Assembly: GCA_045648665.1 (NCBI GenBank)
Contig: JAZROL010000017.1
Location: 4,616-68,615 of the forward strand
DNA: 64,000 nucleotides
From: Candidatus Enterousia sp.
Lineage (GTDB): Bacteria; Pseudomonadota; Alphaproteobacteria; Rs-D84
Direction of reading: 5' to 3'
Shown: positions 25,736 through 55,233 of the stretch, in pieces
Position numbering within the stretch: position 1 is the first letter of the stretch
Layout of the letters: every line of letters starts with the position of its first letter
Translations under genes and position numbers: made by a program
The notes under the pieces: model-generated
Seen by the model: only the letters and a program-made list of their open reading frames with translations
What the model was told of the DNA's origin: nothing
Database searches by the model: none

Positions 25736-25753
25736 ATTCGCCCTCTTCCACAA

Positions 25754-27946: not shown

Positions 27947-28096
27947 GTGACACATTCCTACATTATATCTTTCATTTTATCAAAAAATATTATATCTTGC
28001 AAGCACTTAAAGGAATCATATATCCAAAAATTTCTTGCAATTTTTATTGACGCCTAATATTATTGTAGGCATAACATAAATAAAGGTTTTTATAAT

Positions 28097-28445: not shown

Positions 28446-30743
28446 ATGCGAAAAATACTTGTATTTTTTGTTGGTTTGTTTTTATGCATTGATGTTGTCA
28501 ATGCTGCTGGGCGTGGACAAAACATAAATCCAAGAAATGATGCAAAAAATGTCTCGGTTCGCCAAACAACAAATACAAGAAGCACAAATTCAAATCGCGC
28601 AACAACCGCAAGAACATCAATAAACACGAACACCCGAAAGAACGAAAAATCGAAACAAATTTTATCTCGCACACCACAAACACGAAAATCAGTATCTGCA
28701 CGTTCTGCAAATACAACAACATCTTCTGGAAACATAAAAGTTTCACGTGTTGCATCAAACCAGACAAAAACATTTGGTACAAATTACAATTCTTGTCGCG
28801 ATTCATATTTTACATGCATGGATCAGTTTTGTGCGGCACAAAATGAAACTTATAGACGTTGCGTTTGTTCTTCACGATTGACCGAGATAAAAAACAAAGA
28901 AGCAAAAATATCCCAAACTGGGGACAACCTGAAAGATTTTCAAAATTTAAATTTAGAAGTTATAAATAAAACTGCTGGTGAAGTAAAAGCAATGGTTTCT
29001 GCATCCGAAGGCGAAAGCGCTATGAAAAAAGATAAATCCGCCAGTGCAAAAACTTTGAATAGTATATCCGATGTTTTAAACAACACAAAAAAACAAGCCC
29101 TTTCAACCCAAGGACAACTTGACATTGCCGGCGACATCAAAGCGATTTGGTCAACGACAGATTTAATTGGCGGTGCCGATATTGCAAATTTAACCGGCGA
29201 AGCATTATATAACGCAGTTCATGCACAATGTGCAGAATTGGTTGCACAAAATTGTGAAACATCTGATTTGAATATGGTTGCATCTGCATATGGAATGTAT
29301 ATAGAAAATGATTGTTCCACATTAGCCAATAACCTGGACAAGAAAAAAACAGAAGCAAATGCCGCTATTCGTTCAACCAGGCATCAAATGCAAGATGCAA
29401 GACTTGAAAATTATGATGCACACAACTCTTTGTCCATAAATGATTGTGTTGCAAGGGTACGCCAAGATTTAACAACAGAAACCGCTTGTGGCGCTGATTA
29501 TATTCACTGTTTAGACATGACTGGTAAATATATAAATTCAACAACAGGCAAACCAATATATTCCACTGAATTTTATCAAATAGAAAATCAAATTTCATTA
29601 TCTGGCGATGTTTTAACTAACAATAAAAATGCAAATTTCATAGTTGCACTAAATCAAAAACGTGCTTTTGCTGAAAAAACATTGGATTTATGTCGCGATA
29701 ATGCCGACGAAGTTTGGGATGAATACATGCGTCAGGCCATTATCGAAATATATCAAAAACAACAAGAACGTGTAAGAATTGTTAAATCAGAATGTTTACG
29801 TGTTGTCAATGATTGTTATTTAGATAAATCAAACCAATTAAAATCTTTTTCTGATACCACAAACGAAATAACTTTGGGGCAAACATTAGAAACCGCAGAA
29901 GACATGTGTGCAGATAAATTAAATACTTGCAGTAATTTATATGGCGGTGGCTCAGAAGGTTTCGCAAAACTTGTTGATACAATGTCTGAAATAACAGACG
30001 TCACCATCGCACAAACATGTCCAGATTTATTAAATAAATATGTGCAAAGTATCTGTTCTGTATCAGTTAATGATTCAATTCATACTTATCCTTATGGCTG
30101 TCGTACTTATGCCCCGGGCGAAGCACGCTATGCAAACACAGAAATATGCAACACAACTTTAACCAATCCTTTTAGTAAATCTGACATTTTTGTTTCAACA
30201 AATATCAGTGTTTATGACGATTATTATGTTTGTAAAAATACCACAAAAAGATATATACGCTGTGAATTTAATTACTATTTGTATGACGACCAAGGCGAAT
30301 GCAACGAAACCAACAACTTTTGTTTCAGTAAAAATAATGCAACCGAATGCCGTATATGTCCATCTGGACATTTATGCACAGGCGGAACCAGTGAACCAAA
30401 AGGAATAAATTCAGATATATATAGTTCGTGCGGAGTATATTATATAGGCAGTTTGTATCAACAACTTGTTCGTTACGCATTGCAAAATTGTGTACGACCT
30501 TCACGAAGTTCATATATATTACCAGAAAATATTTTGGCAGATGTTGATACCGTTATGAAACAAGTCCAGTCATCTTTGGTATCTGAATTAAGTAAAGAAT
30601 GTGAACGCTATAACGGGAAATGGTATGACTTACCATGGATTGATGACGATATGGATGGTTATCACGATGAAAATGATGATACGCTGAACGAAGAATTTTA
30701 TGATCAAACACGAACAAATAAACTTTGGGGATATTGCAAATAA
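28446..30743 (+). CDS. Cys-rich secreted protein, CMDxFC family paralog P3 (765 aa, most divergent)
   Basis: Signal peptide MRKILVFFVGLFLCIDVVNA, CRDSYFTCMDQFCAAQNETYRRCVC, GEALYNAVHAQC...NDCSTLANNLDKKK. Confidence 0.85.
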   Translation: MRKILVFFVGLFLCIDVVNAAGRGQNINPRNDAKNVSVRQTTNTRSTNSNRATTARTSINTNTRKNEKSKQILSRTPQTRKSVSARSANTTTSSGNIKVSRVASNQTKTFGTNYNSCRDSYFTCMDQFCAAQNETYRRCVCSSRLTEIKNKEAKISQTGDNLKDFQNLNLEVINKTAGEVKAMVSASEGESAMKKDKSASAKTLNSISDVLNNTKKQALSTQGQLDIAGDIKAIWSTTDLIGGADIANLTGEALYNAVHAQCAELVAQNCETSDLNMVASAYGMYIENDCSTLANNLDKKKTEANAAIRSTRHQMQDARLENYDAHNSLSINDCVARVRQDLTTETACGADYIHCLDMTGKYINSTTGKPIYSTEFYQIENQISLSGDVLTNNKNANFIVALNQKRAFAEKTLDLCRDNADEVWDEYMRQAIIEIYQKQQERVRIVKSECLRVVNDCYLDKSNQLKSFSDTTNEITLGQTLETAEDMCADKLNTCSNLYGGGSEGFAKLVDTMSEITDVTIAQTCPDLLNKYVQSICSVSVNDSIHTYPYGCRTYAPGEARYANTEICNTTLTNPFSKSDIFVSTNISVYDDYYVCKNTTKRYIRCEFNYYLYDDQGECNETNNFCFSKNNATECRICPSGHLCTGGTSEPKGINSDIYSSCGVYYIGSLYQQLVRYALQNCVRPSRSSYILPENILADVDTVMKQVQSSLVSELSKECERYNGKWYDLPWIDDDMDGYHDENDDTLNEEFYDQTRTNKLWGYCK

Positions 30744-36976: not shown

Positions 36977-38077
36977 ATGCAAAAGTATTTAAACCAAATT
37001 TTGTGTGGTGATTGCATAGATATTATGCGAAAGATGCCTGACGCATCTGTTGATGCCGTATTTGCAGATTCCCCGTACAATTTACAACTGGGCGAAAAAA
37101 CACTTTACAGACCCGAAGATCAAACCGCCGCACGTGCAGTCCGTGACAGCTGGGATGCGTTTGAATCAAACGACAAATATGATGAATTCACACGCGATTG
37201 GATGCGTGAATGTAAACGCATACTTAAACCAGACGGTGCAATGTGGGTTATTGGTTCTTATCATAACATATTTCGTGTTGGCGCAATATTACAAGACATG
37301 GGTTTTTGGATTTTAAATGACATAGTTTGGGTAAAAACAAATCCTATGCCTAATTTTCGTGGCACACGCTTTACAAACGCACATGAAACTTTGATTTGGG
37401 CGACACCTACAAAAACCGGGAAATACACATTTAATTACGAAACTATGAAAAAATTAAATGGTGGAAAACAAATGCGTTCGGATTGGGATTTAAATATTTG
37501 CCTGGGTGAAGAACGCGTAAAGGACAAAGACGGCAAAAGCCTGCACAATACACAAAAACCAATGGATTTGTTGCGTCGTGTAATTTTGTCTTCAACAAAA
37601 CCTGGCGATATAATTTTGGATCCTTTTGTTGGTTCTGGAACAACCGCCGCGGTTGCAAAAGAATTAGGACGTCAATTTATCGGTATAGATCGCGAACCTA
37701 TATACGTAGACGCTGCGCGCGAACGTGTTAATAATATAGTCCCTGTTGATTTATCAGACATAGAAGTCACTGCACCAAAACGTGATGCAATAAAGATTGC
37801 TTTCCGTGAATTGATTGATGCGGGATTACTTTACACAGGACAAACATTGGTTGGCCCACGTGGTGATCGCGTTATGATTACTCACGACGGACAATTAACA
37901 CATACTTTGTACGGCAAAGCATCTATCCACATAATGGCTGCGCGCATACAACACAGTGTCAGTTTTAATGGTTGGGATTATTGGTCTGCGGAAAAAGCAG
38001 ACGGCACATTGGTTGCCATTGACGAATTACGCAAATATTTACGCAACATAAAACAGAATATGAAACGCGCCGCTTAA
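36977..38077 (+). CDS. ccrM: CcrM-like N6-adenine DNA methyltransferase (beta class)
   Basis: Motif IV ADSPYNL near the N-terminus, AdoMet motif DPFVGSGTTAAVA later, ~80-aa C-terminal extension as in CcrM. Confidence 0.9.
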   Translation: MQKYLNQILCGDCIDIMRKMPDASVDAVFADSPYNLQLGEKTLYRPEDQTAARAVRDSWDAFESNDKYDEFTRDWMRECKRILKPDGAMWVIGSYHNIFRVGAILQDMGFWILNDIVWVKTNPMPNFRGTRFTNAHETLIWATPTKTGKYTFNYETMKKLNGGKQMRSDWDLNICLGEERVKDKDGKSLHNTQKPMDLLRRVILSSTKPGDIILDPFVGSGTTAAVAKELGRQFIGIDREPIYVDAARERVNNIVPVDLSDIEVTAPKRDAIKIAFRELIDAGLLYTGQTLVGPRGDRVMITHDGQLTHTLYGKASIHIMAARIQHSVSFNGWDYWSAEKADGTLVAIDELRKYLRNIKQNMKRAA

Positions 38078-40406: not shown

Positions 40407-41336
40407 ATGAAAAAGATTTGGGAATTTTTGAAAACGAATTTTTTAGTTATCAAATGGACATTTTGGTATTTTCTGTTTGTGTGGGCTGTTTTACAGTTCG
40501 TGTTCGGGTTTGATATGTTTTCTTTGAAATATTGGGAACGTTTTTTCAGGGCAACCCTGCACGGATTCAGCGGTTTTGTATTTGGTACAATAATATACAC
40601 TTTTATACCGATTTACCTGGCGACTGTCATCACTGTTTATCGAAAACATGAATTGATAATAACAATACCTTTTGTTGATAAAATATTTAATCTTTTCAAA
40701 AAAGCACAACCCGCCCCGGAACCAGAACCTGAACAAACCGAACCGGAAGAAACCGCAAACAAAATTGAATACCCGGCGGATTTGCCACCTGAATTGCGCG
40801 TTCCATATACACGTGTGAAAAACAATCTTTCTTTGACTGGTGCGGTATCTGTATATAATCGCCAACCAATATCAACACCAAAAGCACCCGAACACAAACC
40901 AGAAGAAAATTCCGAATACCCTATTCCTATGGATTTTGATATATCCGAAGATTTAACCACAGAAGACACCAACATACCACAATTCACAGACCTCGATTTT
41001 GGCACACCTATTGCAAATCAACATTCAAACAGCGTCACAAAATATTTCGATTTACACGACATAGAATACGAACAATATCGTGATTTTGTCGCAACGGAAA
41101 AATATGTAATCTATCCACACATCGACGATGATTTTTGGATAATGGACGAAGACAATTGGTTTGCCAGTGGCAAACAAATGGAATCCCCATTACCAGAATT
41201 AAAGGGCCTGGCAAAACAAAATGGATTAATCCCGGTGTTGTATTTGGAATCAACAAATATAATGAATTTGAACGAAACAATAAAACAAATCGAATCCACC
41301 GGAATAAAAGTTATTAAAGATTTAGACGAATTGTAA
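40407..41336 (+). CDS. membrane protein, unknown function (309 aa)
   Basis: Three N-terminal TM helices, Pro/Glu linker, acidic C-terminal domain. No known motif. Confidence 0.55.
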   Translation: MKKIWEFLKTNFLVIKWTFWYFLFVWAVLQFVFGFDMFSLKYWERFFRATLHGFSGFVFGTIIYTFIPIYLATVITVYRKHELIITIPFVDKIFNLFKKAQPAPEPEPEQTEPEETANKIEYPADLPPELRVPYTRVKNNLSLTGAVSVYNRQPISTPKAPEHKPEENSEYPIPMDFDISEDLTTEDTNIPQFTDLDFGTPIANQHSNSVTKYFDLHDIEYEQYRDFVATEKYVIYPHIDDDFWIMDEDNWFASGKQMESPLPELKGLAKQNGLIPVLYLESTNIMNLNETIKQIESTGIKVIKDLDEL

Positions 41337-42103
41337 AATTCCCACCACACGGTTCGGGCGCCGCCGCCCGAGCCGCTTGTGTAAATCTGGCCGCAGTTTC
41401 CGCCTTTGCCAAAGCCCCCGTCTGGCAAAATTTGATTACAAAGATTGTTATAGCCGTAGTTGTTGCGGCAGTCATTGTTGTTGCATGTCTTTTCACCGCG
41501 GGGGCTGCAGGTGCAGGCCCATTAGCCAAATTCATGGCTACACATGGTGCAACTTTTGCGATAATGAAGGAAAAATTAGCGGCAGCAGCGCTAAAGTCAG
41601 CTATTGCTGGAGCAGCAAAAACTGAAGCAAAAGTAGCAATAGCTGCAGCGGCATCTGGGAAGGGAAGTATCAATGACGCCACGATGGCTATCGGCGCTTC
41701 TATTAAGGCAACGTCAGCCGCTACTAAGGCTACTGCAGAAGCCGCTGCCGCTACCGCTGCGACTGTGGGTACCGTTGCAGCCAGTACAATAGGAATGGCA
41801 GGTGCCGTTGCTGGTGTTATGGCTGACGGTATTTCAACAGGTATAACAAATGCAAATAATAATGCTGAAATCAGCGCACAAAAAGCAAGTACTAATGAAA
41901 ATCATGGGGAGTTTTTTACCAACGAATGGAACTATAAAGAAAAAATCACGACAGATTTTGATGATAAAACTAATATTTGTAAGCGTTGTATTTCAACCAA
42001 GAAATGTGAAGAAACAAAGTGGTCTATTTTTTCGGATAGAACGTGCAAAAAATGGAAAAGCGAAGAATTTTCTGAACCCCGTTGCAGTGAGATACAGTTT
42101 TAA
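41318..42103 (+). other. start-less alternative C-terminal cassette of P4 (no ATG or SD visible; open frame from 41318)
   Basis: The in-frame translation begins ...AAARAACVNLAAVSAFAKAPVWQ (identical to P4), then a divergent TM/Ala-rich region, and ends NHGEFFTNEWNYKEKITTDFDDKTNICKRCISTKKCEETKWSIFSDRTCKKWKSEEFSEPRCSEIQF. The P4 end is THGEFFANEWNYREKITTDFDNDTGICKKCVSKMTCEKTKWHIFSDRTCSKWASEDFEDERCTEIQF. Only a TTG at 41432 is available as a start, and no SD is visible. Confidence 0.8.
41360..41428 (+). repeat. left arm of perfect 69-bp inverted repeat
   Basis: Base-for-base reverse complement of 42557-42625 by manual alignment. GC-rich relative to its surroundings. Confidence 0.9.
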
Positions 42104-42112
42104 ATTATTAAA

Positions 42113-44755
42113 TTAAAATTGGATTTCGGTGCATCTTTCGTCCTCAAAATCTTCAGATGCCCATTTACTGCAAGTTCTGTCACTAAATATATGCCACTTT
42201 GTTTTTTCACAGGTCATTTTTGAAACACATTTTTTACAAATACCCGTATCATTATCAAAATCAGTTGTTATCTTTTCACGATAATTCCATTCATTAGCAA
42301 AGAATTCACCATGAGTTTCAGTAACTTTATCCTTATGCGTAGATATAAAAGCTTTGTCATCCTCTCTTTCATTAGAAGCTAACCCTTCATCTATACCTAC
42401 CGCAATGGCTCCTATCGCAGTTGCACCAAAAAAAACAAGACCTATAATACCGGCAACAAAATGAAAAGTATTAGTCCACGCACCAGCAGTAAATACCGTT
42501 GCAACAATCGCCGCCCCAATAACAACTATACCGACAATAATTTGTGCCCATAATGATTGCCAGACGGGGGCTTTGGCAAAGGCGGAAACTGCGGCCAGAT
42601 TTACACAAGCGGCTCGGGCGGCGGCTCTCTTTGCATCTTCACCATTTAACTTTAAATTATTAGCAACTCGTTCATTTACTATCGCTAAATCCATTTGCAT
42701 TTGTTCGCTGTATATATCATACAATTGATAATAATTTTCTTTTGCTTTTAATAATGCGGCATTTGCCAAACTTACACGAATAGTATTTGATAATTTTGGA
42801 AAACGAACTTTGTTATTTTTAAATTGATCTGTTACACCTGGAACCTCGCGACCATTTATGCAATATTGCACAAAATAATCAGATTCCACAGACGATATCA
42901 TTGAATTAATTCCAGATTGCAAATGTTGCAATTCATCCATGACACGTGCTTTTTCTTCTTCTGGGATATAACTGTCTTTGTTTTCTTCCAATGCGGTCAT
43001 ATACGCATCAATATCGATTTTACCGTCGTCGGTTACTTGAATACTTTCCCATTTTATAATGCCGCTGATAACACCCGCAAATGGGGCAACATAACCCAAT
43101 TCTTCACTTTGTGCATTTTGCAAACGCCCCAGCTCATAATCGGAAATATCATTAACGCTGCTGCGACAATTAAACCATTTGAACCCGGCGGTTGAATCTG
43201 GCGAATCCGTAGAATATTCACACACCTGATAACGCAAGGATTGCGCACCTATCTTTTGTCCCAACGCCTGAACCGCGCAATCTTCAACACTGCCACAGGT
43301 TTTACTAACTGAATTTTCCACAGCCAATTCGCAAGTCTGCAACATATCATTATCGATATTCAAAATTATACCCTGGACAATTTGCGCGATATTATCGTAA
43401 ATTTCATCGCCCTGCACTTTTTCGTTACCATATACTTTTTGACAACCGACCAATTTATCATAAGGGCACATACGCATAATTATATTCGTATCCAAACCAA
43501 CACACTGAGAATAATCCGGGCCACATCTGTCCACGCTTTGCATACATTCTTTTAATTCCGCAGTACAAGAATCAACACGCATAGCCGACAATTTAGACAA
43601 CACTGATGGCCACAGCGTTGATAATTGCGGAACCTCGTAACTGCCACCTGTTGCAGCCAAACAAGGTTCCAATTCAACTTTGCACATAGACTTTATTGTT
43701 TCAGGACGTGTCAAACACATATCATACGAATCGTTTCCATCTATGTTGTCTTTGCACGCTTTCACAAAACAATTGGAAATATTTTCCAAACAAGATGTCC
43801 TGATATTCGATTCGGCTTTTGATTCGGCTAACTTTATTTGTGGCGCAGATATTTTTAAGAAAGAATCCCAAACATTATCACGCACAGAAACACATTTGCT
43901 CAAAACCGATTCGCACATTATTTTTTTGCTTTCCAACATATCCATTGTTGATTTAGCAATTATTACCGACGAATTTTCCCCCTGTATTGCAACTGTATTT
44001 GTCACACCAGCATAAATACTTTCTTTTGCAACAGTATCAACACATCCTGTGAAATCAGCACCACATTCCGCGGTAGTTTGCATACATTGTGAAAATTCAT
44101 TTACGCATTGTCCCAGATCATATTTGTTTGACGATTGATATTGTTCCAGCGCGGCTTTGCGAACAGTCGTTTTTGCAGCGGCAGCACGTTGCGAACTTTT
44201 ATTTTTTTCAATCTTCAAAGCATTTTCATACGCATTACAATCAGATTTAACTTTTTGTGCATAAATATTTTTCAACAGCGTAAGTTGCGATTTACATTCT
44301 GGAATTTTTTCAATACAGATATCATGCATTTTTGCACGTAATCTGTCGCCCTGTTCCGAATCGGTGACGGATAAATCAACATCTTCTTCATCTTGATCTG
44401 CGGTAATATCATCATATAGTTGTTGTCCCAATTCACCAAGTTTAATTATTTCGACACTGTTTTCAGTTATTAATTGTGTTTGTGCTTCGGATTTTTTTAT
44501 TTGATTAAATTCAGCATTTAATTCTTTGATTCGATTACTGCATTGGCAACGGCCACCCGAATCGTTATCCAACATACATCCCATATCCATACATGCGGTA
44601 TATTTGTCCTGACAAGAATTTGATGTTGCAGTCGATTCAGAAACTTTTGTTCCACGATTTATAACCGATTGACTGGGGCCACGCGTTGCAGAATAAGTCG
44701 GCATCGCGCAACAAACAAAAAACAGAACTGATAAAAATCTTGTTATCGATTTCAT
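42113..44755 (-). CDS. Cys-rich secreted protein, CMDxFC family paralog P4 (880 aa) with TM hairpin and C-terminal Cys module
   Basis: Signal peptide, CQDKYTACMDMGCMLDNDSGGRCQCSNR and all downstream family motifs. Two hydrophobic segments, then the NEWNY...CTEIQF module. Confidence 0.88.
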   Translation of the reverse strand: MKSITRFLSVLFFVCCAMPTYSATRGPSQSVINRGTKVSESTATSNSCQDKYTACMDMGCMLDNDSGGRCQCSNRIKELNAEFNQIKKSEAQTQLITENSVEIIKLGELGQQLYDDITADQDEEDVDLSVTDSEQGDRLRAKMHDICIEKIPECKSQLTLLKNIYAQKVKSDCNAYENALKIEKNKSSQRAAAAKTTVRKAALEQYQSSNKYDLGQCVNEFSQCMQTTAECGADFTGCVDTVAKESIYAGVTNTVAIQGENSSVIIAKSTMDMLESKKIMCESVLSKCVSVRDNVWDSFLKISAPQIKLAESKAESNIRTSCLENISNCFVKACKDNIDGNDSYDMCLTRPETIKSMCKVELEPCLAATGGSYEVPQLSTLWPSVLSKLSAMRVDSCTAELKECMQSVDRCGPDYSQCVGLDTNIIMRMCPYDKLVGCQKVYGNEKVQGDEIYDNIAQIVQGIILNIDNDMLQTCELAVENSVSKTCGSVEDCAVQALGQKIGAQSLRYQVCEYSTDSPDSTAGFKWFNCRSSVNDISDYELGRLQNAQSEELGYVAPFAGVISGIIKWESIQVTDDGKIDIDAYMTALEENKDSYIPEEEKARVMDELQHLQSGINSMISSVESDYFVQYCINGREVPGVTDQFKNNKVRFPKLSNTIRVSLANAALLKAKENYYQLYDIYSEQMQMDLAIVNERVANNLKLNGEDAKRAAARAACVNLAAVSAFAKAPVWQSLWAQIIVGIVVIGAAIVATVFTAGAWTNTFHFVAGIIGLVFFGATAIGAIAVGIDEGLASNEREDDKAFISTHKDKVTETHGEFFANEWNYREKITTDFDNDTGICKKCVSKMTCEKTKWHIFSDRTCSKWASEDFEDERCTEIQF
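42557..42625 (-). repeat. right arm of perfect 69-bp inverted repeat (inside P4)
   Basis: Reverse complement of 41360-41428. Confidence 0.9.
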
Positions 44756-44764
44756 ATTGTTTTC

Positions 44765-47296
44765 CTAGTATTCAATTTCCTTACATTCTTCTTTTTCATC
44801 ACCCCATTCTTTGCACCATTTGTGTTTAGGTGTATCACATTCCTGCGTTCTTACACACTTAGTACAAACCACTCTGTTTATATCAAACTGCGTAGTCACA
44901 GAACGTTTATAATTCCACGCACTGTGTTGTGAATAACCAACCAACTTTTCGTCACGTCCAGACTTTCTATTTATCTTCCAGTTATTGTTCAATTCTTTAA
45001 TATCTCTGACATCGTCATTTTCACCCAACGCCATACATTTTTCACGTGCAATATCTTCTTTTTTGCGTTGTTCATTTTCTTTATTTACTTTTGCATAACG
45101 CGCAGCCAACGAACTGTTATCATTCACAGAATCTTCATAAACCGTATTATATTTTCTGTAATAATTTCTTTGCACAGACCTTAACGCAGAATTTATAATT
45201 TTTGCACGCGCCATTTGTGTTAAATTAGGAAACTTTGGATTGTCTTTTTTTCCTATAACTTGTTCAAAACCCGAATCGTAAGTCAAACCAGAAACCTGAC
45301 GCCCCGTCATACAAAATTGAATACGAGGATCGGCTTCTATTTCTGCGATTGCGTTTTTAATAGATGTTCCCAACACACCTATTTCGGTTTTAATATTATC
45401 AGCTTCTTTTTTATCAATATCTATCATCACATCCTTGACTTTGTCCATATATTCATCGGCACTGATTATCCCGGACATATCTTCCAACATTTCTACGTTT
45501 TGCCACAATATTTGACCATAAATTATTGACGTAAAAATATGTTTATCATGTTTAGTCAAAGATAAATCAGAATTACGGGATGTCTTTCCTAATTCAATAT
45601 CAGTAATCGCGGATAAATCTTGTTTACAGTTCACATATTTGTGTTCACCATCCGCAGTTTCACAATATTTTATTCCTAATGACCGAGTTCCTAAATCATT
45701 ATCGACTATTAAACCATCGCAATTATTAACATCACCGCACACACGCAACATAGCATCATCAACAGCCTTTTGACAAGCATCAGCCAAACCTTTTTCAACG
45801 GACAACATAACACCCTGGGCAACACGCGCCAAAGTTTCCCGCACATTATAAACTTTACCTTTATAATCACCATAACACGCGGTCAGTTTATCTTCTGGAC
45901 ACATATCGACAACATCTTCATTATCCAACCCGATACATTTTGAATAATCTTCGCCACATCTGTCATCGTCTTGCATACATTGTTTAAATTCTTTGGTACA
46001 TGCATCTGCACGTTCTTTTGCTAATTCCGCCAAGATACCTTTCCAAATACGCGATTTTTCAGGTTTATCATAACTGCCACCCGTTGCCGACAAACAAGGT
46101 TCCAATTCAATTTTACAAAAAGATTTATAATTTTCTGGTTGCGTCAAACACATATCATAAGAACCATCAGGATCTTTCGGATCCATATTTTCACGACATG
46201 CCTTTAAATAACATTCTGCAACAGTAGAAAGACAATTTTCACGCAAACCCGATTCGGCTTTTAATTCCGCAGACTTTATATCGAACGCAGCATCTTGTAA
46301 AAATGAATTCCACACATTATCTTTGACCGATTCGCATTTATCCAAAATATTTTCACACAAAATTTTCTTTGCCGACAAAGAATCCATAGTCGACCCGGAC
46401 AGATTAATGTCCATGCTGCCAACCGTTATAATTTGTGATTCTGCTTTTGCAGCACCTACATTTTCATACGCAGACAAAGTCACACATCCGGTAAAATCAT
46501 TTCCACAACCACCGGTCGTTTTCATACACTGTTTAAATTCCAAAGCACATTTTCCCAAACCATACGAATTAGAATCTTTGAATTGCGCCAACGCAGCATC
46601 ACGAACATTTTTTTGCGCATTATCCAGCTGCACAGTGGCTTCTGATTTTTGCAATTTAATTGCATTTTCAAATCCAATACAATCAGATTTAATTTTTTGC
46701 GCATACAACAATTGCACCATTTCTTTTGACGATGCGCATTTCTTAGGTGTTTGTTCCCAACACATAGAATCAGCAACATTATAAAGTTCATCGCCTTTTT
46801 TATTAGAGATATCATCTTCTAAAACAAAATCATCTTCTTCGTCATCTTCATTGGACGAAAACATATTATTCCAATCACTAAATGATAAAGACTTTTTGTC
46901 CTGTTTATCTTTTTTCTTTAAAACATCTTCGGACATTTTTACAACATCATCGGTTGCTTTGCCTAAATTTACATAATCGGCACCATTTTCAGCAATCAAA
47001 GCCGCCTTATTTTGCATATCCATAATTTCGTTCAGTTGTGTGTATAAACTGTTATATTTATTACTGCATTGGCAACGACCACCAGAAACATTTTCATCCA
47101 TACAAAGCGCATCCATACAACCGAAATACGAATCCTGGCATTCTGTATCAACCGCGGTATTTTCAGCTGCAGAATTGACCTTGGTCCCGGTATTAACAAC
47201 CTTTTGTTTAACCGCAGAACGCGAAACCACCGCACCAAAAGACGAACCCGGCACAACATATAAACATAACAAAAACACTGCGAACAATTTACGCAT
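44765..47296 (-). CDS. Cys-rich secreted protein, CMDxFC family paralog P5 (843 aa)
   Basis: Start at MRKLFAVFLLCLYVVPGSSFG (GGAGAG RBS). CQDSYFGCMDALCMDENVSGGRCQCSNK. 9 bp upstream of P4. Confidence 0.88.
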   Translation of the reverse strand: MRKLFAVFLLCLYVVPGSSFGAVVSRSAVKQKVVNTGTKVNSAAENTAVDTECQDSYFGCMDALCMDENVSGGRCQCSNKYNSLYTQLNEIMDMQNKAALIAENGADYVNLGKATDDVVKMSEDVLKKKDKQDKKSLSFSDWNNMFSSNEDDEEDDFVLEDDISNKKGDELYNVADSMCWEQTPKKCASSKEMVQLLYAQKIKSDCIGFENAIKLQKSEATVQLDNAQKNVRDAALAQFKDSNSYGLGKCALEFKQCMKTTGGCGNDFTGCVTLSAYENVGAAKAESQIITVGSMDINLSGSTMDSLSAKKILCENILDKCESVKDNVWNSFLQDAAFDIKSAELKAESGLRENCLSTVAECYLKACRENMDPKDPDGSYDMCLTQPENYKSFCKIELEPCLSATGGSYDKPEKSRIWKGILAELAKERADACTKEFKQCMQDDDRCGEDYSKCIGLDNEDVVDMCPEDKLTACYGDYKGKVYNVRETLARVAQGVMLSVEKGLADACQKAVDDAMLRVCGDVNNCDGLIVDNDLGTRSLGIKYCETADGEHKYVNCKQDLSAITDIELGKTSRNSDLSLTKHDKHIFTSIIYGQILWQNVEMLEDMSGIISADEYMDKVKDVMIDIDKKEADNIKTEIGVLGTSIKNAIAEIEADPRIQFCMTGRQVSGLTYDSGFEQVIGKKDNPKFPNLTQMARAKIINSALRSVQRNYYRKYNTVYEDSVNDNSSLAARYAKVNKENEQRKKEDIAREKCMALGENDDVRDIKELNNNWKINRKSGRDEKLVGYSQHSAWNYKRSVTTQFDINRVVCTKCVRTQECDTPKHKWCKEWGDEKEECKEIEY

Positions 47297-47405
47297 GCAA
47301 AAACTCTCTCCAATATTGGTATATATATTATACCACAAAACAAGAATTGATAAAATCAGTTTTTATAATAAATATTTAATTTCAAAGACGTATATAACAA
47401 AAAAA

Positions 47406-47429
47406 ACACCGTCCATTTGTTGACGGTGT
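47406..47429. terminator. terminator after P6
   Basis: ACACCGTC catttgt TGACGGTGT flanked by A and T runs. Confidence 0.7.
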
Positions 47430-47434
47430 TTTTT

Positions 47435-50278
47435 TTAATGAACGCTGACACTTCTAGCCACATCTATCAGGAAGTCCGCACTGTTACCTATCGTCTTCGC
47501 TGCATCTTTTAGGGATTTCTCACTGTTACCTAATAAATCACGTTCACGATTGTATTTAGGCATAGCAACAGTACGGCTGCCATCTTCTACACCTTTTTCA
47601 TCCCAATGCCAACAGCACCCAGTAAGCATATAATCACAAACATGTTTTTTTCTGGTAATCGTACAGGTATATGTTGCAGGATCATACGCAGCAGTTGAAA
47701 ACCAATGCGCAGAGTCTCTCGCGGATCCCACACAACCCGTGCGGAAAAATCCTGTACCTTGTGTAGATGAAAACCCATCAATATCATTGTTTGCTATAGC
47801 AAGCTTCTCACAATAGTCTTTATTTAGTTCATGTTTTTTCTCTGCAACCACACCCTCTATTGATGCTAAACGTTCTGCGACTTTGGCGTAAAGAGCTTCA
47901 ATCTCTGCATCTTTTGCTCTTTCTGCTTTGATATATTGTTCACGCATAACACCCAAAGTTTTTGAAACTAATATATTAGTATACTGTTCCAACAATTCTG
48001 GATATCTTGTACCTCTTGAATCAATATCGTCTCCGTCCGCACCAATATCATACGAGTTTTTTCCACCCCTTGTTGCACTTATACCTTGAATTTTTTTCCC
48101 GTTAAGACATGCACTTACTGTCGCGTCAGATTTCAATATAGCAATCTTTGTGTTTAAAAGATTTGTAAGACCATCTCTTATAGATTCAACACCTGAATCA
48201 TCCGCCTCTGCAAATCCAGCATTTGCTGGGTTGTTTGTCGAAGAGTATTCAAACTTACCCTTATTATACATTACATTGTTAACATTTATACGATTTAACA
48301 AACGAGGTCTGACATTACCCGCTATTATATCCGCTGCTTTAAATGCGTCCGCGGAATTATAACAATTTCCATCTGTTTCGTCTTCTCCATCCAGGCATAA
48401 TTTAACATCCAACAAACCATCAAATGATATATTTCCTAAATCAAGACCTTCACATGTTTCTTCGTCACCACACAACTTAATCATTGCGGTTTTAGCAGCT
48501 TTTTGACATGTTTCCGCTAATTTAGAATCTATCTTTAATGCGTAACCCTGGGCAACCTGGGCTATATATTCACGAACATCTTGATTTTGGCCACCGGCAC
48601 CACGCCCATAACGGTCTTGACATGCCGTCAATTTTTCTTCGGCACACAAATCGACAATCGTATCTGTTGATAAACCAACACACATAGCATAATCTTCGCC
48701 ACAAATGCCTTCTATGCACTGCGTCACTTCTTTTGTACATGCATCAACACGCAAAGCCGACAACATAGCGGTAACACCCTGCCATAATCTGGATTTTTTA
48801 AATCCAGCATCAGATGTTGATTGCCCACCGGTTGCAACTATACATGGATCTAACTTTACTTTACAAGAATCGCGTAATAACCAAGGATCCGCCAAACACA
48901 TATCATAATTTTTCGCGTCGCTGTTTGGGTCAAAACTGGTTGCACAACGTTCTTTGAAACAAGTTGCTACTTCGGAAATACAATTTTTACGCAAATCATC
49001 TTCTGCATTCAATTCCGCACTTTTTAATGCAGGCGCCGCATCACGCAAGAACAAATCCCAAATAGTATCTTTGTATTTCACACAATGTGATAAAACATCA
49101 TCGTCACAATAAACCTTCTTTGCGTTTAATTGATTCATTGTTGACCCGGCCAAAACAATATCAACAACCCCAGAAATAGTTCTGGCTTTCTCAGATTGCT
49201 TTGCTTTTCTTGATGTTTTAGCATTTGATGCATCCGCAGCAGTTTGGATATTTTCTTCGGCCGAAAACTGTACACATCCCGAATAATCCGCACCGCATCC
49301 GGCTGTAGTTTGCATACACTGTGTATATCGGGTTAAACATTGCCCCTGGTTATATTTATTTGCATCCTGAAATTGTTCAAGCGCAGCATCACGCAATGCT
49401 TTTTCCGCGGTTTGTAATTTTTGTGCACTGGCATTTTTTTGCTGCTTCAAACTGTTTTCATACGCAGTACAATCAGATTTAATTTTTTGCTTATATATCA
49501 ATTGCAACATAGATGCTGATTCCTGACATTGTTCCGGGATTTGTGCAGCACACATTTTAGAAGCACTAGCATGTAACGCATCGCCTTTTTTATCTAAAAC
49601 CACAGAACTAGCCACATCAAAAATATCTTCTTCATCATCTTCGAACATAGCATCGTTATTCCATAAATCCAAATTCAATGTTCTGGATGTTTTCCCGTTT
49701 TCTGCCTCGGCAGTTTTACTATTGACAACGGCATCCGCTGCCGCTTTTGCGCGCGCCATAATCTCGTCCGCATTTTCACCCATTTTCAAACGTTCGACAC
49801 CTTCGGTTGCCATAGCATAACTTTGTTCATCCAATTTCATAATCTCTTCTAGAATAGAATCAAATTCAGCATTTTTATTACTGCATTGGCAACGACCACC
49901 CGACGTGTTATCCAACATACAGAAAGAATCCATACATCCAAAATAAGCATCCTGGCATTCCTGATCAACAACAGTATTTGTTGTCGCAGACTGCACTTTT
50001 GTCCCAGCATTGATTACCTTTTGTTTAGTCCCAGCACGCGCAGCAATCGGTCTTGTCGCGGCACGCGCAGTCGCAGGTGCAATCCCAGATGTATTTTTTA
50101 CACCGACATTACGTGCAGCACGTGCAGTTTGCGCTTTCGGTGCAGCCGCTTCCTTTTGTTCAACAGATTGTTCCTGTGAAACAAGGCCACGCGCACTTCT
50201 GCGTTGTGTCGCAGCAAACGCCCCAAAATCAGCCAAAACCAATGAAACAAACAATGGCAAAATTAATAATTTGCGCAT
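47435..50278 (-). CDS. Cys-rich secreted protein, CMDxFC family paralog P6 (947 aa)
   Basis: AAGGAG RBS, signal peptide MRKLLILPLFVSLVLADFGAFA, CQDAYFGCMDSFCMLDNTSGGRCQCSNK and the downstream family motifs. Confidence 0.88.
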   Translation of the reverse strand: MRKLLILPLFVSLVLADFGAFAATQRRSARGLVSQEQSVEQKEAAAPKAQTARAARNVGVKNTSGIAPATARAATRPIAARAGTKQKVINAGTKVQSATTNTVVDQECQDAYFGCMDSFCMLDNTSGGRCQCSNKNAEFDSILEEIMKLDEQSYAMATEGVERLKMGENADEIMARAKAAADAVVNSKTAEAENGKTSRTLNLDLWNNDAMFEDDEEDIFDVASSVVLDKKGDALHASASKMCAAQIPEQCQESASMLQLIYKQKIKSDCTAYENSLKQQKNASAQKLQTAEKALRDAALEQFQDANKYNQGQCLTRYTQCMQTTAGCGADYSGCVQFSAEENIQTAADASNAKTSRKAKQSEKARTISGVVDIVLAGSTMNQLNAKKVYCDDDVLSHCVKYKDTIWDLFLRDAAPALKSAELNAEDDLRKNCISEVATCFKERCATSFDPNSDAKNYDMCLADPWLLRDSCKVKLDPCIVATGGQSTSDAGFKKSRLWQGVTAMLSALRVDACTKEVTQCIEGICGEDYAMCVGLSTDTIVDLCAEEKLTACQDRYGRGAGGQNQDVREYIAQVAQGYALKIDSKLAETCQKAAKTAMIKLCGDEETCEGLDLGNISFDGLLDVKLCLDGEDETDGNCYNSADAFKAADIIAGNVRPRLLNRINVNNVMYNKGKFEYSSTNNPANAGFAEADDSGVESIRDGLTNLLNTKIAILKSDATVSACLNGKKIQGISATRGGKNSYDIGADGDDIDSRGTRYPELLEQYTNILVSKTLGVMREQYIKAERAKDAEIEALYAKVAERLASIEGVVAEKKHELNKDYCEKLAIANNDIDGFSSTQGTGFFRTGCVGSARDSAHWFSTAAYDPATYTCTITRKKHVCDYMLTGCCWHWDEKGVEDGSRTVAMPKYNRERDLLGNSEKSLKDAAKTIGNSADFLIDVARSVSVH

Positions 50279-52865: not shown

Positions 52866-55112
52866 CTAAACAGGACATATATCTCTCTTCAAAGGAGGAA
52901 TTGTCATATTTTGTCTTTCTATATCATTTTGATAAATATTTATTTTCGTTGGCCACTCAAAACATGTATTTTCATCGATGCAATACTTAGCCACAGTTGG
53001 AACACATTCATCACAACCTTTGGCCCCCTTGTTCACAGTAGTTGTTCCGTCTGGACAAGAATGACACTTTCCTTCATCATCGTTGATGCAATAGTAATTA
53101 CCATCTTTTGTACCATCAGACGCGGGTCTTGTTCCAGTTGAATAAGTCCCCCTATTACATTGATACTGCTTTGCAATAACCCTTTCTCCAACTGTTTCTT
53201 TTATACAACAAGCCCCAGGTGGACAAGTCGTGCATTGTTCTTTGCCCGGACCGAAAGAAAATGTTCCCTCGGCACATGGTTGACATAAAGCATTATGAGT
53301 ATCATTACCACTGCGGTATGTTCCGTCCGGACATTTTTCACAAGATCCTCTTGAATCGGATTGAACCCAACCGTACCCTCCATCACACAACTTTGCACAG
53401 TATTCGCGTTTTTCACCTTTTTCTATCACATAAATAGAATCAGCTGAACATGGCAAGACACATCTTATAAACTCTGTCCTTTCACCATCGTCACCCCAAG
53501 TATACAATGCTACCTTGTCACGCGGACACGATTTACAACTAGTTGCGCCGGGTTCTTCTGTATATTTTGTGTCACCGCATTCAATACATTTTCCGTCACT
53601 TGCATATGTTCCAATTGGACATATATAACAACCGTCCTGTGTATCATTTACAATCGACCCAACAGGACAATTTGTACAAGTACCATCGCTATCCCTATAT
53701 TGATTCAAACCACACAGATTTGGCGTACAAGCACCCGGACCCACGGCACCAACTTCTGGATTATAGGTACCATTACCACAACGTTCACAAACAGGAATAC
53801 CATCTTCATTAATTTTCCCGTATGTATTCACAGGACATGCCGTACACGCAACCACAGGGAAAGTTTCTTTTATAACATATAGAGGTTTTTCACTACAATC
53901 TGTCACATTAGGATTACAAAGATTTGTGCACTTTTGTACTTCACAATTATCCGAGCTTGTCGATGAATTAGAAAAACAATGGCTTCTAACAAGGTCCAAC
54001 TCAGACCACCAAGAATCAAAATCATCAGAAGATTTACCATCACTACTACCTTCTGTTTCATTGCCACAATCTTGTTGTGAATTCGGATCACAAAATTCTT
54101 TGGATTTCACACCACCATTTGAATATGTTCCCACCTGACAACGAAACGCGTTACCACCCACACAATAATGCCCTTCCGGACAAGGTTGTTTTGACCGTTC
54201 TTTTCCAGGCTCTTCACACCAATAACCACTTGGGCATTGTTTACATTGGGCCCAACCCTCTTCTGAATATTCACCTTCACCGCATGGTGTACAATTTCCT
54301 ATGCCTGTATACGATTTTTCTGTTCCCGCAGGACACTTCGTTCCTATCCCTTTATTATCACAGGTATAACCGGCGGGGCAATCATACCGCCCCTGTTCCA
54401 GTCTATTTGTGTGTGGAACCTCAAAACACCCACCGGGACAATAATATGCACCATTACCACCACAAGGTCTACTTTCCGGACGCTCATCTGTGGTCATAGC
54501 AACAAAATACCCAGGCGCACAATAAAATGGAAAATATTGTTTTTCGCCTTTTTCATTATTTGTATAACAATCGTATTGCAGCCATGTTCCCACCTCAGAA
54601 TTCGGGTACTGAGCAGGACATCTGTAAATACCAGCATCATCTGATGTTCCACATAGACCTTCACCTGTGTTTACTGTACAAATATCATTTACATCACAAT
54701 CCTCCCCCCAATAATTCTCATGATAGTAGTTTACCTTTTTTCCGTCTTTACAATTTCTTCTATAAGAATAAGTGTTATCTTTGTTCTTTTTTAGGGTATA
54801 TATAGGAGTTTCTTTTTTATCATAACCTTCAGTATTACAACCTATAAACCACTCACATGGAGAACCATATGCACACCAATTTTCGACATCATTTTTATAA
54901 ATCTCATCTTGGTCATTTCCATGTTTATCCAACGCACCATCATCACCTGGGGCACCTTTACACCAACACCCTTTGGGACAATCAGGGGTTTGATTTGTTA
55001 AACAATATTGCCTTGGGCCAGAACTATAACATTCCCCAATTCCCATTGCAGAATTGTACACGCAAAACAAACAAATAAAAACACTTAAAAATGCCAATCG
55101 CAAAAATTTCAT
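52866..55112 (-). CDS. secreted protein made of eukaryote-like CxxCPxGxY cysteine repeats (748 aa)
   Basis: Start at MKFLRLAFLSVFICLF (AAGGAG RBS). Repeats such as CTPCGEGEYSEEGWAQCKQCPSGYWC, CTACPVNTYGK...CERCGNGTYNP, CTNCPVGS...CYICPIGTYASDGKCIECGDTKY, CEKCPDGTYRSG...CQPCAEGTF, CHSCPDGTT. Confidence 0.85.
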   Translation of the reverse strand: MKFLRLAFLSVFICLFCVYNSAMGIGECYSSGPRQYCLTNQTPDCPKGCWCKGAPGDDGALDKHGNDQDEIYKNDVENWCAYGSPCEWFIGCNTEGYDKKETPIYTLKKNKDNTYSYRRNCKDGKKVNYYHENYWGEDCDVNDICTVNTGEGLCGTSDDAGIYRCPAQYPNSEVGTWLQYDCYTNNEKGEKQYFPFYCAPGYFVAMTTDERPESRPCGGNGAYYCPGGCFEVPHTNRLEQGRYDCPAGYTCDNKGIGTKCPAGTEKSYTGIGNCTPCGEGEYSEEGWAQCKQCPSGYWCEEPGKERSKQPCPEGHYCVGGNAFRCQVGTYSNGGVKSKEFCDPNSQQDCGNETEGSSDGKSSDDFDSWWSELDLVRSHCFSNSSTSSDNCEVQKCTNLCNPNVTDCSEKPLYVIKETFPVVACTACPVNTYGKINEDGIPVCERCGNGTYNPEVGAVGPGACTPNLCGLNQYRDSDGTCTNCPVGSIVNDTQDGCYICPIGTYASDGKCIECGDTKYTEEPGATSCKSCPRDKVALYTWGDDGERTEFIRCVLPCSADSIYVIEKGEKREYCAKLCDGGYGWVQSDSRGSCEKCPDGTYRSGNDTHNALCQPCAEGTFSFGPGKEQCTTCPPGACCIKETVGERVIAKQYQCNRGTYSTGTRPASDGTKDGNYYCINDDEGKCHSCPDGTTTVNKGAKGCDECVPTVAKYCIDENTCFEWPTKINIYQNDIERQNMTIPPLKRDICPV

Positions 55113-55143
55113 TAAAAATCCAATCTCCTTTCTAACGAAATCA

Positions 55144-55172
55144 ATTATAATGTGTTTAATATTTTCGCGCAA
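55144..55172 (-). promoter_or_regulatory. sigma70-like promoter for the inserted Cys-repeat gene
   Basis: Minus strand TTGCGC, 17-nt spacer, TATAAT, 32 nt upstream of the ATG. Confidence 0.55.
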
Positions 55173-55182
55173 GGTAAAAAAC

Positions 55183-55208
55183 AAAAAAACACCGCATAAA
55201 ATGCGGTG
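55183..55208 (-). terminator. rho-independent terminator directly after rpsK
   Basis: CACCGCAT aaa ATGCGGTG with a 7-nt T-run on the minus strand. Confidence 0.7.
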
Positions 55209-55233
55209 CAATTTTTTGTTCACAAACGCAGTA

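Follow-up and report, generated by a model that had tools for sequence, protein, structure and literature searches.

A candidate inversion switch exchanging the C-terminal end of a Cys-rich protein in Candidatus Enterousia

P4 and a silent alternative 3′ end converge between perfect inverted repeats

In the window, i.e., the whole 64-kb stretch of Candidatus Enterousia DNA that was analysed, the expressed gene P4 and a silent alternative 3′ end of the same gene converge between the arms of a 69-bp perfect inverted repeat (Table 1). This anatomy is conserved in six species, the silent copy is under selection as judged from its codon substitutions, and in a sister species the bracketed segment has actually inverted. 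We infer that flipping would occur in the window's strain too. That an inversion-type cassette switch operates here, whichever enzyme drives it, is held with high confidence; the full statement, i.e., a two-state gene-altering inversion switch with a homology-driven mechanism included, we regard as somewhat probable when taken as one whole.

In the proposed switch, a reciprocal crossover between the 69-bp arms would flip the segment that they enclose. Residues 1-733 of P4 would be constant and stay in place, and the 147-aa tail, which comprises a short membrane hairpin and a Cys module, would be exchanged in frame for the 224-aa silent tail, with its membrane helix, long Ala-rich loop, second hydrophobic segment and diverged Cys module. 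The computed inversion product has an in-frame junction and extends P4 from 880 to 957 aa. The old tail would be parked as the new silent cassette, so that the switch would be reversible. The initial annotation had already suggested an in-frame inversion that swaps the 3′ end of P4, and both the frame and an exact inversion at a sister-species locus (L012/L034, see below) bear this out, but its figure of about 225 aa replaced has to be corrected to 147 aa exchanged for 224 aa.

Table 1. Coordinates of the features at the P4 locus within the window
Feature	Position	Strand	Description
Gene X	40407-41336	+	309 aa; conserved membrane protein without Pfam match
Left arm of the 69-bp perfect inverted repeat	41360-41428	+	Heads the silent cassette, 23 nt past the stop codon of gene X
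Silent alternative 3′ cassette	41360-42103	+	Repeat, then 224 codons and stop
Segment between the arms	41429-42556		1128 bp; both alternative tails, tail to tail; predicted from the geometry to flip
Inner imperfect inverted repeat	41893-42323		Two convergent Cys modules; 41893-42107 against 42109-42323; 215 nt at 70%; arms 1 nt apart
P4, expressed gene	42113-44755	-	880 aa; ORF and translation; third in the array C-B-P4, whose genes share one strand
Right arm of the 69-bp perfect inverted repeat	42557-42625	-	Within P4, residues 711-733; proposed crossover site
Paralogues B and C	44765-50278 (B 44765-47338; C 47435-50278)	-	Directly upstream of P4, same strand

The two arms are exact reverse complements (69/69 matching positions), and this sequence was found in 2 copies within the window versus 0 in 100 shuffles. 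The identity ends sharply on the outer side and decays inward, reaching 105 nt at 85%. The arms are 1128 bp apart and the stops of the two convergent frames 9 nt apart, while the inner repeat carries no perfect run of at least 20 nt. The perfect match of the arms, both distances and the divergence of the Cys modules to about 70% DNA identity had been claimed by the initial annotation, and all were confirmed, the last by the measured 215 nt at 70%. A GC-rich patch had also been pointed out. The G+C content of the arm is indeed 65%, as compared with 37% for the window, but the patch is mainly a conserved Ala-rich peptide motif, and most of the high G+C is due to Ala, Pro and Gly codons. The GC3 of the arm is 0.57 versus 0.32 upstream, and an equal bias was observed in a relative that lacks the cassette.

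In P4 a signal peptide is followed by a helical body rich in Cys, the conserved motif AARAACVNLAAVSAFAKAPVWQ, a membrane hairpin of two helices (hydrophobic segments at residues 731-761 and 763-789) and, at the C-terminus, a beta module with 6 Cys residues. In the AlphaFold model a long helix (residues 653-727) runs into the membrane helix, and the beta module spans residues 815-879. The variable part of P4 lies in regions that appear to be membrane-embedded or cytoplasmic, and its surface exposure is not obvious. More than 800 homologues were found, every one from uncultured gut or rumen Alphaproteobacteria. Paralogue B ends in the same Cys module, with neither a membrane hairpin nor a silent cassette. 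Gene X is convergent with P4 in all the relatives examined, and the silent cassette, where present, always lies between the two genes. Genomes of this order (Rs-D84) are smaller than 1 Mb (PMC12306168); that of the window's organism is roughly 0.9 Mb.

The silent cassette is a start-less but intact reading frame

The frame of the left arm stays open between 41318 and its stop at 42101-42103, and carries no ATG, GTG or TTG ahead of the TTG at 41432. No ribosome-binding site is visible for the cassette, and no Shine-Dalgarno sequence precedes position 41432. Homology to P4 starts exactly at 41360, i.e., at the repeat boundary. Hence, the open frame without a start codon or visible Shine-Dalgarno sequence and the abrupt onset of homology, both noticed on first inspection of the sequence, hold. 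The cassette encodes a membrane helix, an Ala-rich loop of about 100 aa, a second hydrophobic segment and a Cys module, in which 6/6 Cys residues and the WNY.EKITTDFD motif are retained. When the silent and expressed Cys modules of the window were compared, the dN/dS was 0.17 at a dS of 1.74, while the dS of the repeat (23 codons) was 0. In 5/6 genomes the same comparison within one genome gave a dN/dS of 0.06-0.17 at a dS of 0.8-1.7, and L035, the sixth, has two modules that are almost identical. The silent cassettes are intact ORFs in 6/6 species, and these codon comparisons indicate that all six are under purifying selection.

The layout is conserved in related species

The same layout, with a P4 orthologue, a convergent silent cassette and the neighbour X, was found in five other Candidatus Enterousia-like species (represented by L010; L012/L034/L031; L028; L035; and L037), each genome having a single silent cassette in inverted orientation. 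In the window and in these five species the partner copy lacks the gene start up to the repeat, so that the pair is asymmetric. The repeat starts within four codons of one position (an AAA[R/Q]AA motif) in 6/6 species, and from this outer edge the perfect run extends for 109 nt in L028, 72 nt in L010, 69 nt in the window, 41 nt in L012/L034/L031, 30 nt in L035 and 18 nt in L037. The repeat sequence varies between species yet is identical inside each genome, a pattern indicative of concerted evolution. The inner repeat has perfect blocks of 133 nt in L012, 125 nt in L010 and 186 nt in L035. The window and L028 differ in the frame offset of the cassette from X, and the tails of P4 are hypervariable between strains. 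The cassette is missing from L023, a second assembly of the window's species (about 93% DNA identity), and from most other species too.

The segment is inverted between two assemblies of a sister species

L012 and L034 are near-isogenic assemblies, with 0/4777 and 1/4842 mismatches in the two flanks (1 in 9.6 kb). Between these flanks, positions 4778-6583 of L012 correspond to 13957-12152 of L034 (minus strand) with 100% identity over 1806 nt, from repeat to repeat and in opposite orientation. The arm-specific mismatches were all swapped between the two assemblies (20/20), so that the crossover must have occurred inside the outer 41 perfect bases. The event was reciprocal: both tails were kept, swapped and 100% identical, and the spacer was flipped. 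P0124 (933 aa) and P0128 (893 aa), the corresponding full-length proteins, are both on record in public assemblies; their identical bodies carry exchanged tails, and the displaced tail is called as an ORF (P0126, 209 aa) on the P0128 contig. In a third strain (L031-L033) the inner repeat, whose sequence is unrelated to that of the outer one, has also recombined, so that the orientation of the spacer is restored and the tails are still swapped. Each orientation is present on several contigs. In the window's own species the other orientation was not seen in the two assemblies on record, one of which lacks the cassette. A rare inversion that became fixed in different strains would have the same appearance in assemblies as a fast programmed switch.

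Homologous recombination or an unlinked invertase

The initial annotation listed no invertase in the window and, in agreement with this, Pfam scans covering 39 of the 46 ORFs of at least 150 aa in the window revealed no recombinase domain, with neither a PF00239-type (resolvase family) nor an integrase-family match among them. Likewise, the precomputed Pfam hits for the genes 6-10 kb on each side of the P4 orthologue at seven related loci include no recombinase. The perfect block ranges from 18 to 109 nt among species, and no fixed core is visible in it. Because no Hin/Gin- or Rci-type enzyme is encoded nearby and a second, unrelated repeat pair recombines, homologous recombination is no less likely than a dedicated invertase. 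We therefore mildly favour a RecA-type, homology-driven inversion, in which the general homologous recombination machinery of the cell would act on the short perfect repeat. This also limits the analogy first drawn with Mu, P1 and R64, which stands for the logic of switching but not for the enzyme.

The same switch could alternatively depend on a dedicated enzyme, a site-specific invertase whose gene would lie elsewhere in the genome and whose core would be at the outer edge of the repeat; the global invertases of Bacteroides provide a model. We consider this unlikely, albeit a serious contender. It would fit the perfect block that begins exactly at the outer boundary in all six species, within four codons of one position, and the single mapped crossover that falls in the outer 41 nt; moreover, PMC9881135 describes programmed inversions that have no recombinase gene close by. 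The lack of a recombinase among the 39 window ORFs scanned and in the 6-10 kb around the gene at the related loci argues against it, as do the recombination of a second repeat pair of unrelated sequence and the small genomes of the order (<1 Mb; PMC12306168). In addition, the repeat is a conserved coding motif, so that a core at the DNA level is inseparable from codon constraint.

Alternative explanations of the left copy

The left copy could also be an inert relic, dating from an inverted duplication that copied the 3′ end of P4, with the 69-bp identity left over and no switching in this strain. The cassette is evidently losable, being missing in the closest relative L023 and in most other species, the perfect run is down to 18 nt in L037, which suggests decay in some lineages, and the inner repeat of the window lacks a perfect run. 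However, a single duplication date is excluded because the dS is 1.74 in the Cys modules but 0 in the 23 repeat codons; the chance survival of an open frame of 261 codons was estimated at less than 1 in 10,000 at this DNA composition; and the dN/dS of 0.17, the occurrence of the pattern in six species and the inversion observed in one of them also make a relic improbable. Even less credible is the view of the left copy as a small gene in its own right (about 220 aa), with translation starting at the TTG at 41432 or coupled to that of gene X. From this TTG a 223-aa ORF does extend to 42103, ORFs are called in relatives (P0126 with 209 aa, and others of 184 aa in L037 and 220 aa in L035), and the cassette follows X on the same strand at a distance of 23 nt. 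But the six species share no conserved start codon and the starts called in them vary, a Shine-Dalgarno sequence cannot be seen ahead of 41432, the frame offset to X is not the same in the window and L028, and the homology to P4 begins exactly at the repeat boundary.

About as improbable as the relic is gene conversion of the pilE/pilS or msp2 kind, in which the left copy would serve as a silent donor and transfer would be non-reciprocal. Three observations would be in line with conversion: the variable region is framed by conserved sequence, with the repeat motif on one side and the Cys module on the other, which is also the arrangement of cassette-conversion systems; the tails are hypervariable between strains; and the L023 tail resembles a mosaic of the expressed and silent tails of the window. 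The event that was caught is nonetheless a clean reciprocal exchange, in which both tails were retained with 100% identity and the spacer was flipped, and there is a single silent copy per genome, which is inverted. Finally, a mis-joined or folded-back contig around the repeat has a negligible probability. Short-read assemblers can be misled by repeats, but typical reads, and also the k of 141 to which 'k141_' in the contig names points, exceed the length of the perfect tract (41-109 nt), what lies between the arms is no fold-back (at most 70% identity), and the layout recurs in independent assemblies from different projects, with each orientation on several contigs.

Discussion

The purpose of the proposed inversion switch is probably variation in the anchoring or presentation of a major envelope protein of a genome-reduced gut symbiont. 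A bolder proposal, which we put forward tentatively and consider doubtful, is that of an ancient, invertase-independent system of nested inversions, kept through the whole divergence of a gut-symbiont clade with genomes smaller than 1 Mb, which would toggle the membrane hairpin and the C-terminal domain of one member of a dominant Cys-rich envelope family. On this proposal, the anchoring of the protein or its presentation to host cells, partner microbes or phages would change with each state, and the order Rs-D84 would gain its first described phase-variation system. Programmed variation would then be maintained purely by the concerted evolution of a coding-sequence repeat.

In the G segment of phage Mu and the C segment of P1 (Gin, Cin), and in the Hin system of Salmonella, a two-state flip swaps a C-terminal part, in frame, behind a constant N-terminal part, and these systems use a serine invertase encoded next to the segment, together with sites of some 26-34 bp and an enhancer. 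The P4 locus shares the two-state in-frame exchange of a C-terminal part, but it has neither an adjacent invertase gene nor an enhancer, it is chromosomal rather than part of a phage, and in place of short (about 26-bp) sites it has an identical tract of 18-109 nt whose sequence differs between species. The R64 shufflon, in which the Rci tyrosine recombinase encoded next to several segments acts on 19-bp sfx sites to provide alternative PilV C-termini, and the pilin inversion of Moraxella, with Piv encoded beside the segment, likewise combine a constant N-terminus with alternative C-terminal cassettes chosen by inversion inside the coding region. The P4 locus differs from both in its single cassette pair, its species-specific repeats of 18-109 nt and the lack of a linked enzyme, and from R64 also in that the repeat has only two copies in 64 kb, with one silent cassette.

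With Neisseria pilE/pilS and Anaplasma msp2 the locus shares a silent, start-less partial copy and conserved flanks around a hypervariable core, but those systems are non-reciprocal and draw on many donors, whereas the donor here is single and inverted, and the one event that was caught was a reciprocal exchange. The sap S-layer locus of Campylobacter fetus undergoes nested inversions, in which the mobile element is a promoter that is shifted from one complete gene to another, the genes having about 600 bp of 5′ homology in common. Both loci would invert through conserved coding-sequence homology without a dedicated invertase, and in both the inversions are nested and use different repeat pairs (compare the outer and inner repeats of L012, L034 and L031); at P4, in contrast, a 3′ cassette moves behind a fixed gene body, and the repeats are of at most 109 nt.

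The closest parallel in kind is the class of gene-altering programmed inversions described by Milman, Yelin and Kishony (2023, NAR; PMC9881135), which Chanin et al. named 'partial intergenic invertons' (PMC10028968). In their study, inversion was best predicted by asymmetry (PMC9881135) and, as there, one arm at the P4 locus lies in a full-length gene while a truncated partner without a promoter begins at the other. The two copies are also separated by a very short gap, and at the homologous locus of the sister species orientation differs between assemblies (L012 and L034). A nearby recombinase gene, which is a usual but not an obligatory feature of programmed inversions, is lacking at P4. The target also differs from those in PMC9881135, in that it is not an HsdS, PilV, tail fibre, SusC/D or Type II restriction-modification gene but a member of an unannotated Cys-rich family from uncultured Rs-D84 / Candidatus Enterousia Alphaproteobacteria. 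The P4 locus is very probably a new case of this known class.

The inverted repeat and the two alternative ends of P4

The two 69-bp arms are exact reverse complements (69/69 bases), and 0/100 dinucleotide-preserving shuffles yielded a matching repeat. Identity stops sharply at the outer side of each arm and decays inwards, to give 105 nt at 85%. The right arm encodes residues 711-733 of P4 (AAARAACVNLAAVSAFAKAPVWQ), and this peptide is encoded by the left arm as well, in an open plus-strand frame, in which the first ATG, GTG or TTG is a TTG at 41432, with none earlier from 41318. The arms lie 1128 bp apart, the stop codons of the converging frames are separated by 9 nt, and there is a second inverted repeat, weaker than the first, between the converging 3′ ends (215 nt at 70%). 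Hence, the initial annotation was right about the perfect repeat, the frame without an ATG (which also has no GTG or TTG before 41432), the distances between arms and between stops, and the roughly 70% DNA identity of the convergent ends. The exchange that it proposed would indeed stay in frame, but the figure of ~225 aa replaced has to be corrected: in the predicted inversion product the last 147 aa of P4 would give way to 224 aa, and the protein would grow from 880 to 957 aa.

The GC-rich patch noted earlier is real (65% G+C in the arm vs 37%) and is mainly due to Ala, Pro and Gly codons. The third-position G+C of the repeat is 0.57 vs 0.32, and is equally raised in L023, a relative that carries no cassette. 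GC-biased gene conversion was dropped as a recombination signature, because GC3 is also up in L023 and is not up in L010 and L012, two loci that carry the cassette.

Features of the P4 region and of related loci
Feature	Locus	Positions	Strand	Description
Left arm	window	41360-41428		
Right arm	window	42557-42625		
Left-arm frame	window	41318-42103	+	stop codon 42101-42103
Silent cassette	window	41360-42103	+	
Expressed tail	window	42113-42625	-	
Inner repeat	window	41893-42107, 42109-42323		
P4	window	42113-44755	-	third gene of C-B-P4 array
Paralog B	window	44765-47338	-	same-strand array C-B-P4
Paralog C	window	47435-50278	-	same-strand array C-B-P4
Further paralog	window	23258-25753	-	
Further paralog	window	25754-27955	-	
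Further paralog	window	28446-30743	+	
Gene X	window	40407-41336	+	309 aa
N6/N4 DNA methylase	window	36977-38077	+	RAMA domain
Cys-rich protein	window	52866-55358	-	830 aa
Species 1	L010			Ca. Enterousia sp. JAZRBB01
Species 2	L012			goat omasum MAG JAFRSF01; with L034 and L031-L033; goat and rumen samples for L012, L034 and L031
Species 3	L028			JGI Ga0310696
Species 4	L035			
Species 5	L037			
Inverted segment	L012	4778-6583		
Inverted segment	L034	13957-12152		opposite strand to L012
Perfect inner block	L012	5408-5540, 5941-6073		133 nt
Perfect inner block	L010	7241-7365		125 nt
Perfect inner block	L035	8604-8789		186 nt
Expressed tail	L023	12119-12724		C-terminus of protein P0121
Extra gene	L023	6040-7296	-	418 aa
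DUF559 (PF04480) gene	L034	12842-13189		
DUF559 (PF04480) gene	L012	5546-5959	-	
DUF559 (PF04480) gene	L031	8504-8851	-	
DUF559 (PF04480) gene	L023	12815-13162		
DUF559 (PF04480) gene	L004	12767-13123		

The P4 family and its neighborhood

More than 800 homologs of P4 were found and, where the source is named, nearly all of them come from uncultured Alphaproteobacteria, including Ca. Enterousia. Rs-D84 comprises uncultured gut and rumen Alphaproteobacteria with genomes <1 Mb, no cultured members and a lifestyle that is not understood (PMC12306168). The window is chromosomal DNA of such a gut bacterium, of Ca. Enterousia / Rs-D84 type, with housekeeping neighbors (rpoA, SecY, L17 and further ribosomal proteins, ClpXP, PGK, RNase HII, NrdR, PFOR, an N6/N4 DNA methylase and an SLT transglycosylase). 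The 64 kb hold six paralogs of this Cys-rich secreted family, which lacks any known domain, of ~730-950 aa (765-947 aa by ORF length) and 23-36% pairwise identity, a large investment given that the genomes of relatives are below 1 Mb; only at P4 are a membrane hairpin and a silent cassette present.

P4 has no Pfam domain, and its PDB profile search returned nothing below E = 0.1. The AlphaFold model (mean pLDDT 59.5) had no Foldseek match in the PDB at E <= 0.001. The sequence and the model together indicate a signal peptide, a ~700-aa helical Cys-rich body and a long helix ending in the repeat-encoded motif, followed by a membrane hairpin (hydrophobic segments 731-761 and 763-789), a charged linker and a ~65-aa six-Cys beta module. 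Conservation among the orthologs covers the repeat motif and the Cys module, with a hypervariable stretch in between.

The synteny kept in relatives consists of L17, C, B and P4, gene X on the opposite strand, and then A, the methylase and NrdR. The product of gene X has two N-terminal hydrophobic segments, an acidic Pro-rich middle and no Pfam match; the gene is convergent with P4 in every case, and the silent cassette begins 7-29 nt past its stop codon. The methylase, with no restriction enzyme seen alongside, is located three genes away from the switch and is kept in most relatives. In addition, the 830-aa protein that adjoins rpoA carries Ephrin_rec_like (PF07699) and NCD3G-like repeats and represents a second, distinct Cys-rich surface-protein family, found at the same position in L001 and L023.

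The layout recurs in five other species

A P4 ortholog with a convergent start-less cassette and gene X was found in five species besides that of the window. In 6/6 species the repeat starts within 4 codons of one shared position (an AAA[R/Q]AA motif) and the longest perfect run begins exactly at the outer boundary, with lengths of 109 nt (L028), 72 (L010), 69 (window), 41 (L012), 30 (L035) and 18 (L037). The repeat sequences carry many synonymous differences between species and are identical inside each genome, which indicates concerted evolution of both arms.

The cassette is absent from many relatives, including the closest one, L023 (WOLF17-1 sample, ~93% DNA identity), which has a third tail variant. 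A strain-specific relic was briefly suggested by the cassette-free loci L001, L003 and L004, until genome and metagenome scans found the cassette in other species. A between-species swap, in which the L012 expressed tail would be orthologous to the L028 silent tail, was not used as evidence: the variable cores support it weakly (67% vs 55% DNA identity), the evidence of the Cys modules is to the contrary, and the L028 silent tail is similar to both L012 tails. The 957-aa hybrid that inversion would create in the window strain was not found among 5.8 billion proteins, and the 90% cluster consists of the window protein and P0121 only; with sampling of this depth the negative result is uninformative.

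A small DUF559 gene (Vsr / restriction-endonuclease-like) lies in the spacer between the cassettes of the L012 species, and therefore flips with the segment. It is found directly downstream of P4 in L023 and L004, both cassette-free, and the window lacks it. G+C-rich palindromic hairpins (GGTTCTCCCCCAGTATGGGGGAGAACC) lie on both sides of the gene in L004; in L023 there is only a 19-nt G+C-rich inverted repeat at 84%. This gene may be a small selfish nuclease cassette.

Inversions at the homologous locus of a sister species

When the protein database was queried with the four silent tails then known, concatenated, a full-length protein of 896 aa (P0031) was found, with a tail that matches the L012 silent cassette at 100% identity. 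Its 90% cluster includes P0124 (933 aa), which is the protein expressed in L012, P0128 (893 aa), with a 713-aa body identical to that of P0124 and the other tail, and P0126 (209 aa), a small ORF annotated on the contig of P0128, which is the displaced tail. The flanks of L012 and L034 differ at 0/4777 and 1/4842 positions, and the segment between them is 100% identical over 1806 nt on the opposite strand. All arm-distinguishing positions (20/20) were swapped, so that the crossover must lie inside the outer 41 perfect bases, and both tails are still present, so that the event was reciprocal.

In L031-L033 the B and P4 bodies are ~94% identical to those of L012, and the tails are swapped relative to L012, but the central spacer keeps the L012 orientation; this calls for a further exchange, within the inner repeat. 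At its inner edge this repeat has a perfect block in L012, made up of the last codons and ~110 nt of 3′ UTR with a G+C-rich hairpin, and in the equivalent position in L010 and L035; the inner repeat of the window contains no such block. In these three loci the inner-edge anchoring mirrors the outer-edge anchoring of the outer repeat. One clean reciprocal inversion and a nested one have thus taken place at the homologous locus.

Alternative explanations and the mechanism of the flip

An assembly artefact is not credible, since typical reads, as well as k = 141, exceed the perfect tracts in length and each orientation state is present on several independent contigs. Gene conversion alone is unlikely beside the reciprocal event in L012 and L034. 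The silent copy is also unlikely to be an independent small gene. A promoter and terminator scan around it gave background level, and a private promoter is not indicated. Silent cassettes are uninterrupted in 6/6 species, with every Cys and the WNY.EKITTDFD motif retained. Between silent and expressed Cys modules of one genome, dS is 0.8-1.7 and dN/dS 0.06-0.17 in 5/6 species; those of L035 are nearly identical (dN 0.007, dS 0). These results show that the silent copy is under selection. An inert relic is accordingly unlikely, because a drifting pseudogene would drive the pairwise dN/dS towards at least 0.5, as against 0.17 in the window, and because a dS of 1.74 in the window modules beside a dS of 0 in the 23 repeat codons makes a single duplication date impossible. 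The inversion switch put forward in the initial annotation is therefore supported by the sister-species inversion, the six-species layout and the selection on the silent copy; we consider it very probable that the locus is an inversion-type cassette switch, and we infer that the window strain flips likewise.

As to what turns the segment, general homologous recombination is mildly favored, since recombination takes place at two unrelated repeat pairs and the length of the identical tract ranges across species from 18 to 109 nt. A serious rival is a site-specific enzyme encoded elsewhere with its core at the outer edge of the repeat, which would match the identity always anchored there. No recombinase domain was found in the 39 of 46 window ORFs of at least 150 aa that were scanned, in keeping with the earlier statement that the window encodes no invertase, and none is on record among the genes called 6-10 kb each side of the P4 ortholog in seven related loci. 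For the full statement, an inversion switch driven by homology, the balance tips just past even.

What the flip would change

Three parts of P4 would be exchanged by the flip: membrane hairpin, linker and Cys module. In the current tail, two hydrophobic helices lie close together. The silent tail combines a single strong helix with an Ala-rich amphipathic stretch of ~100 aa and a second, weaker hydrophobic segment, and its Cys module shares 71% identity with that of the current tail. Judging from hydropathy, an even number of membrane passes would leave the two Cys-rich parts together on the non-cytoplasmic side.

The expressed tail of L023 is a mosaic of the two window tails: NLVTKI after the repeat and the last ~20 residues (KKWESEEFSEPRC) are like the silent tail, and the similarity is to the expressed one in the linker and over the first half of the Cys module. 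The pattern suggests that cassette alleles once recombined and that the cassette was lost afterwards. Strain-to-strain hypervariability and this mosaic show that the hypervariable region of the P4 tail is under diversifying pressure. In L023, C and B are also separated by an extra gene that runs on the opposite strand and has a segment like the repeat motif and a Cys module; by its sequence it is a short member of the Cys-rich family, and it has no counterpart in the window.

Relation to known systems

A conserved and selected switch would single out P4 as a protein with a form that is important in the gut. It would also provide a cultivation-free handle, as the orientation ratio can be read from metagenomes and correlated with host, diet or phage load. 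In addition, the locus offers a clean natural setting in which to ask if reversible inversion can be kept up by short coding repeats when no dedicated invertase is at work.

The locus operates in the manner of the Mu G segment, the R64 shufflon and the Moraxella pilin inversion; thus, the Mu G/R64 logic invoked in the initial annotation holds for the working principle, but not for the linked enzyme and the short fixed sites. Having neither such sites nor a linked Gin/Hin, Rci or Piv-type enzyme, which defines those families, the locus lies outside them. In its apparent use of coding-sequence homology and in its nested inversions the locus is similar to the sap system of Campylobacter fetus. 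Gene-altering programmed inversions are a class defined by Milman et al., for which the strongest predictor is a truncated partner starting at the repeat (PMC9881135); the window locus fits this class, including such a partner, and the term "partial intergenic inverton" of Chanin et al. (PMC10028968) applies to it. The principle is not new, C-terminal cassette swap by inversion being well established; what we rate as new here is the lineage in which it occurs, the family that it targets and the lack of any linked recombinase.
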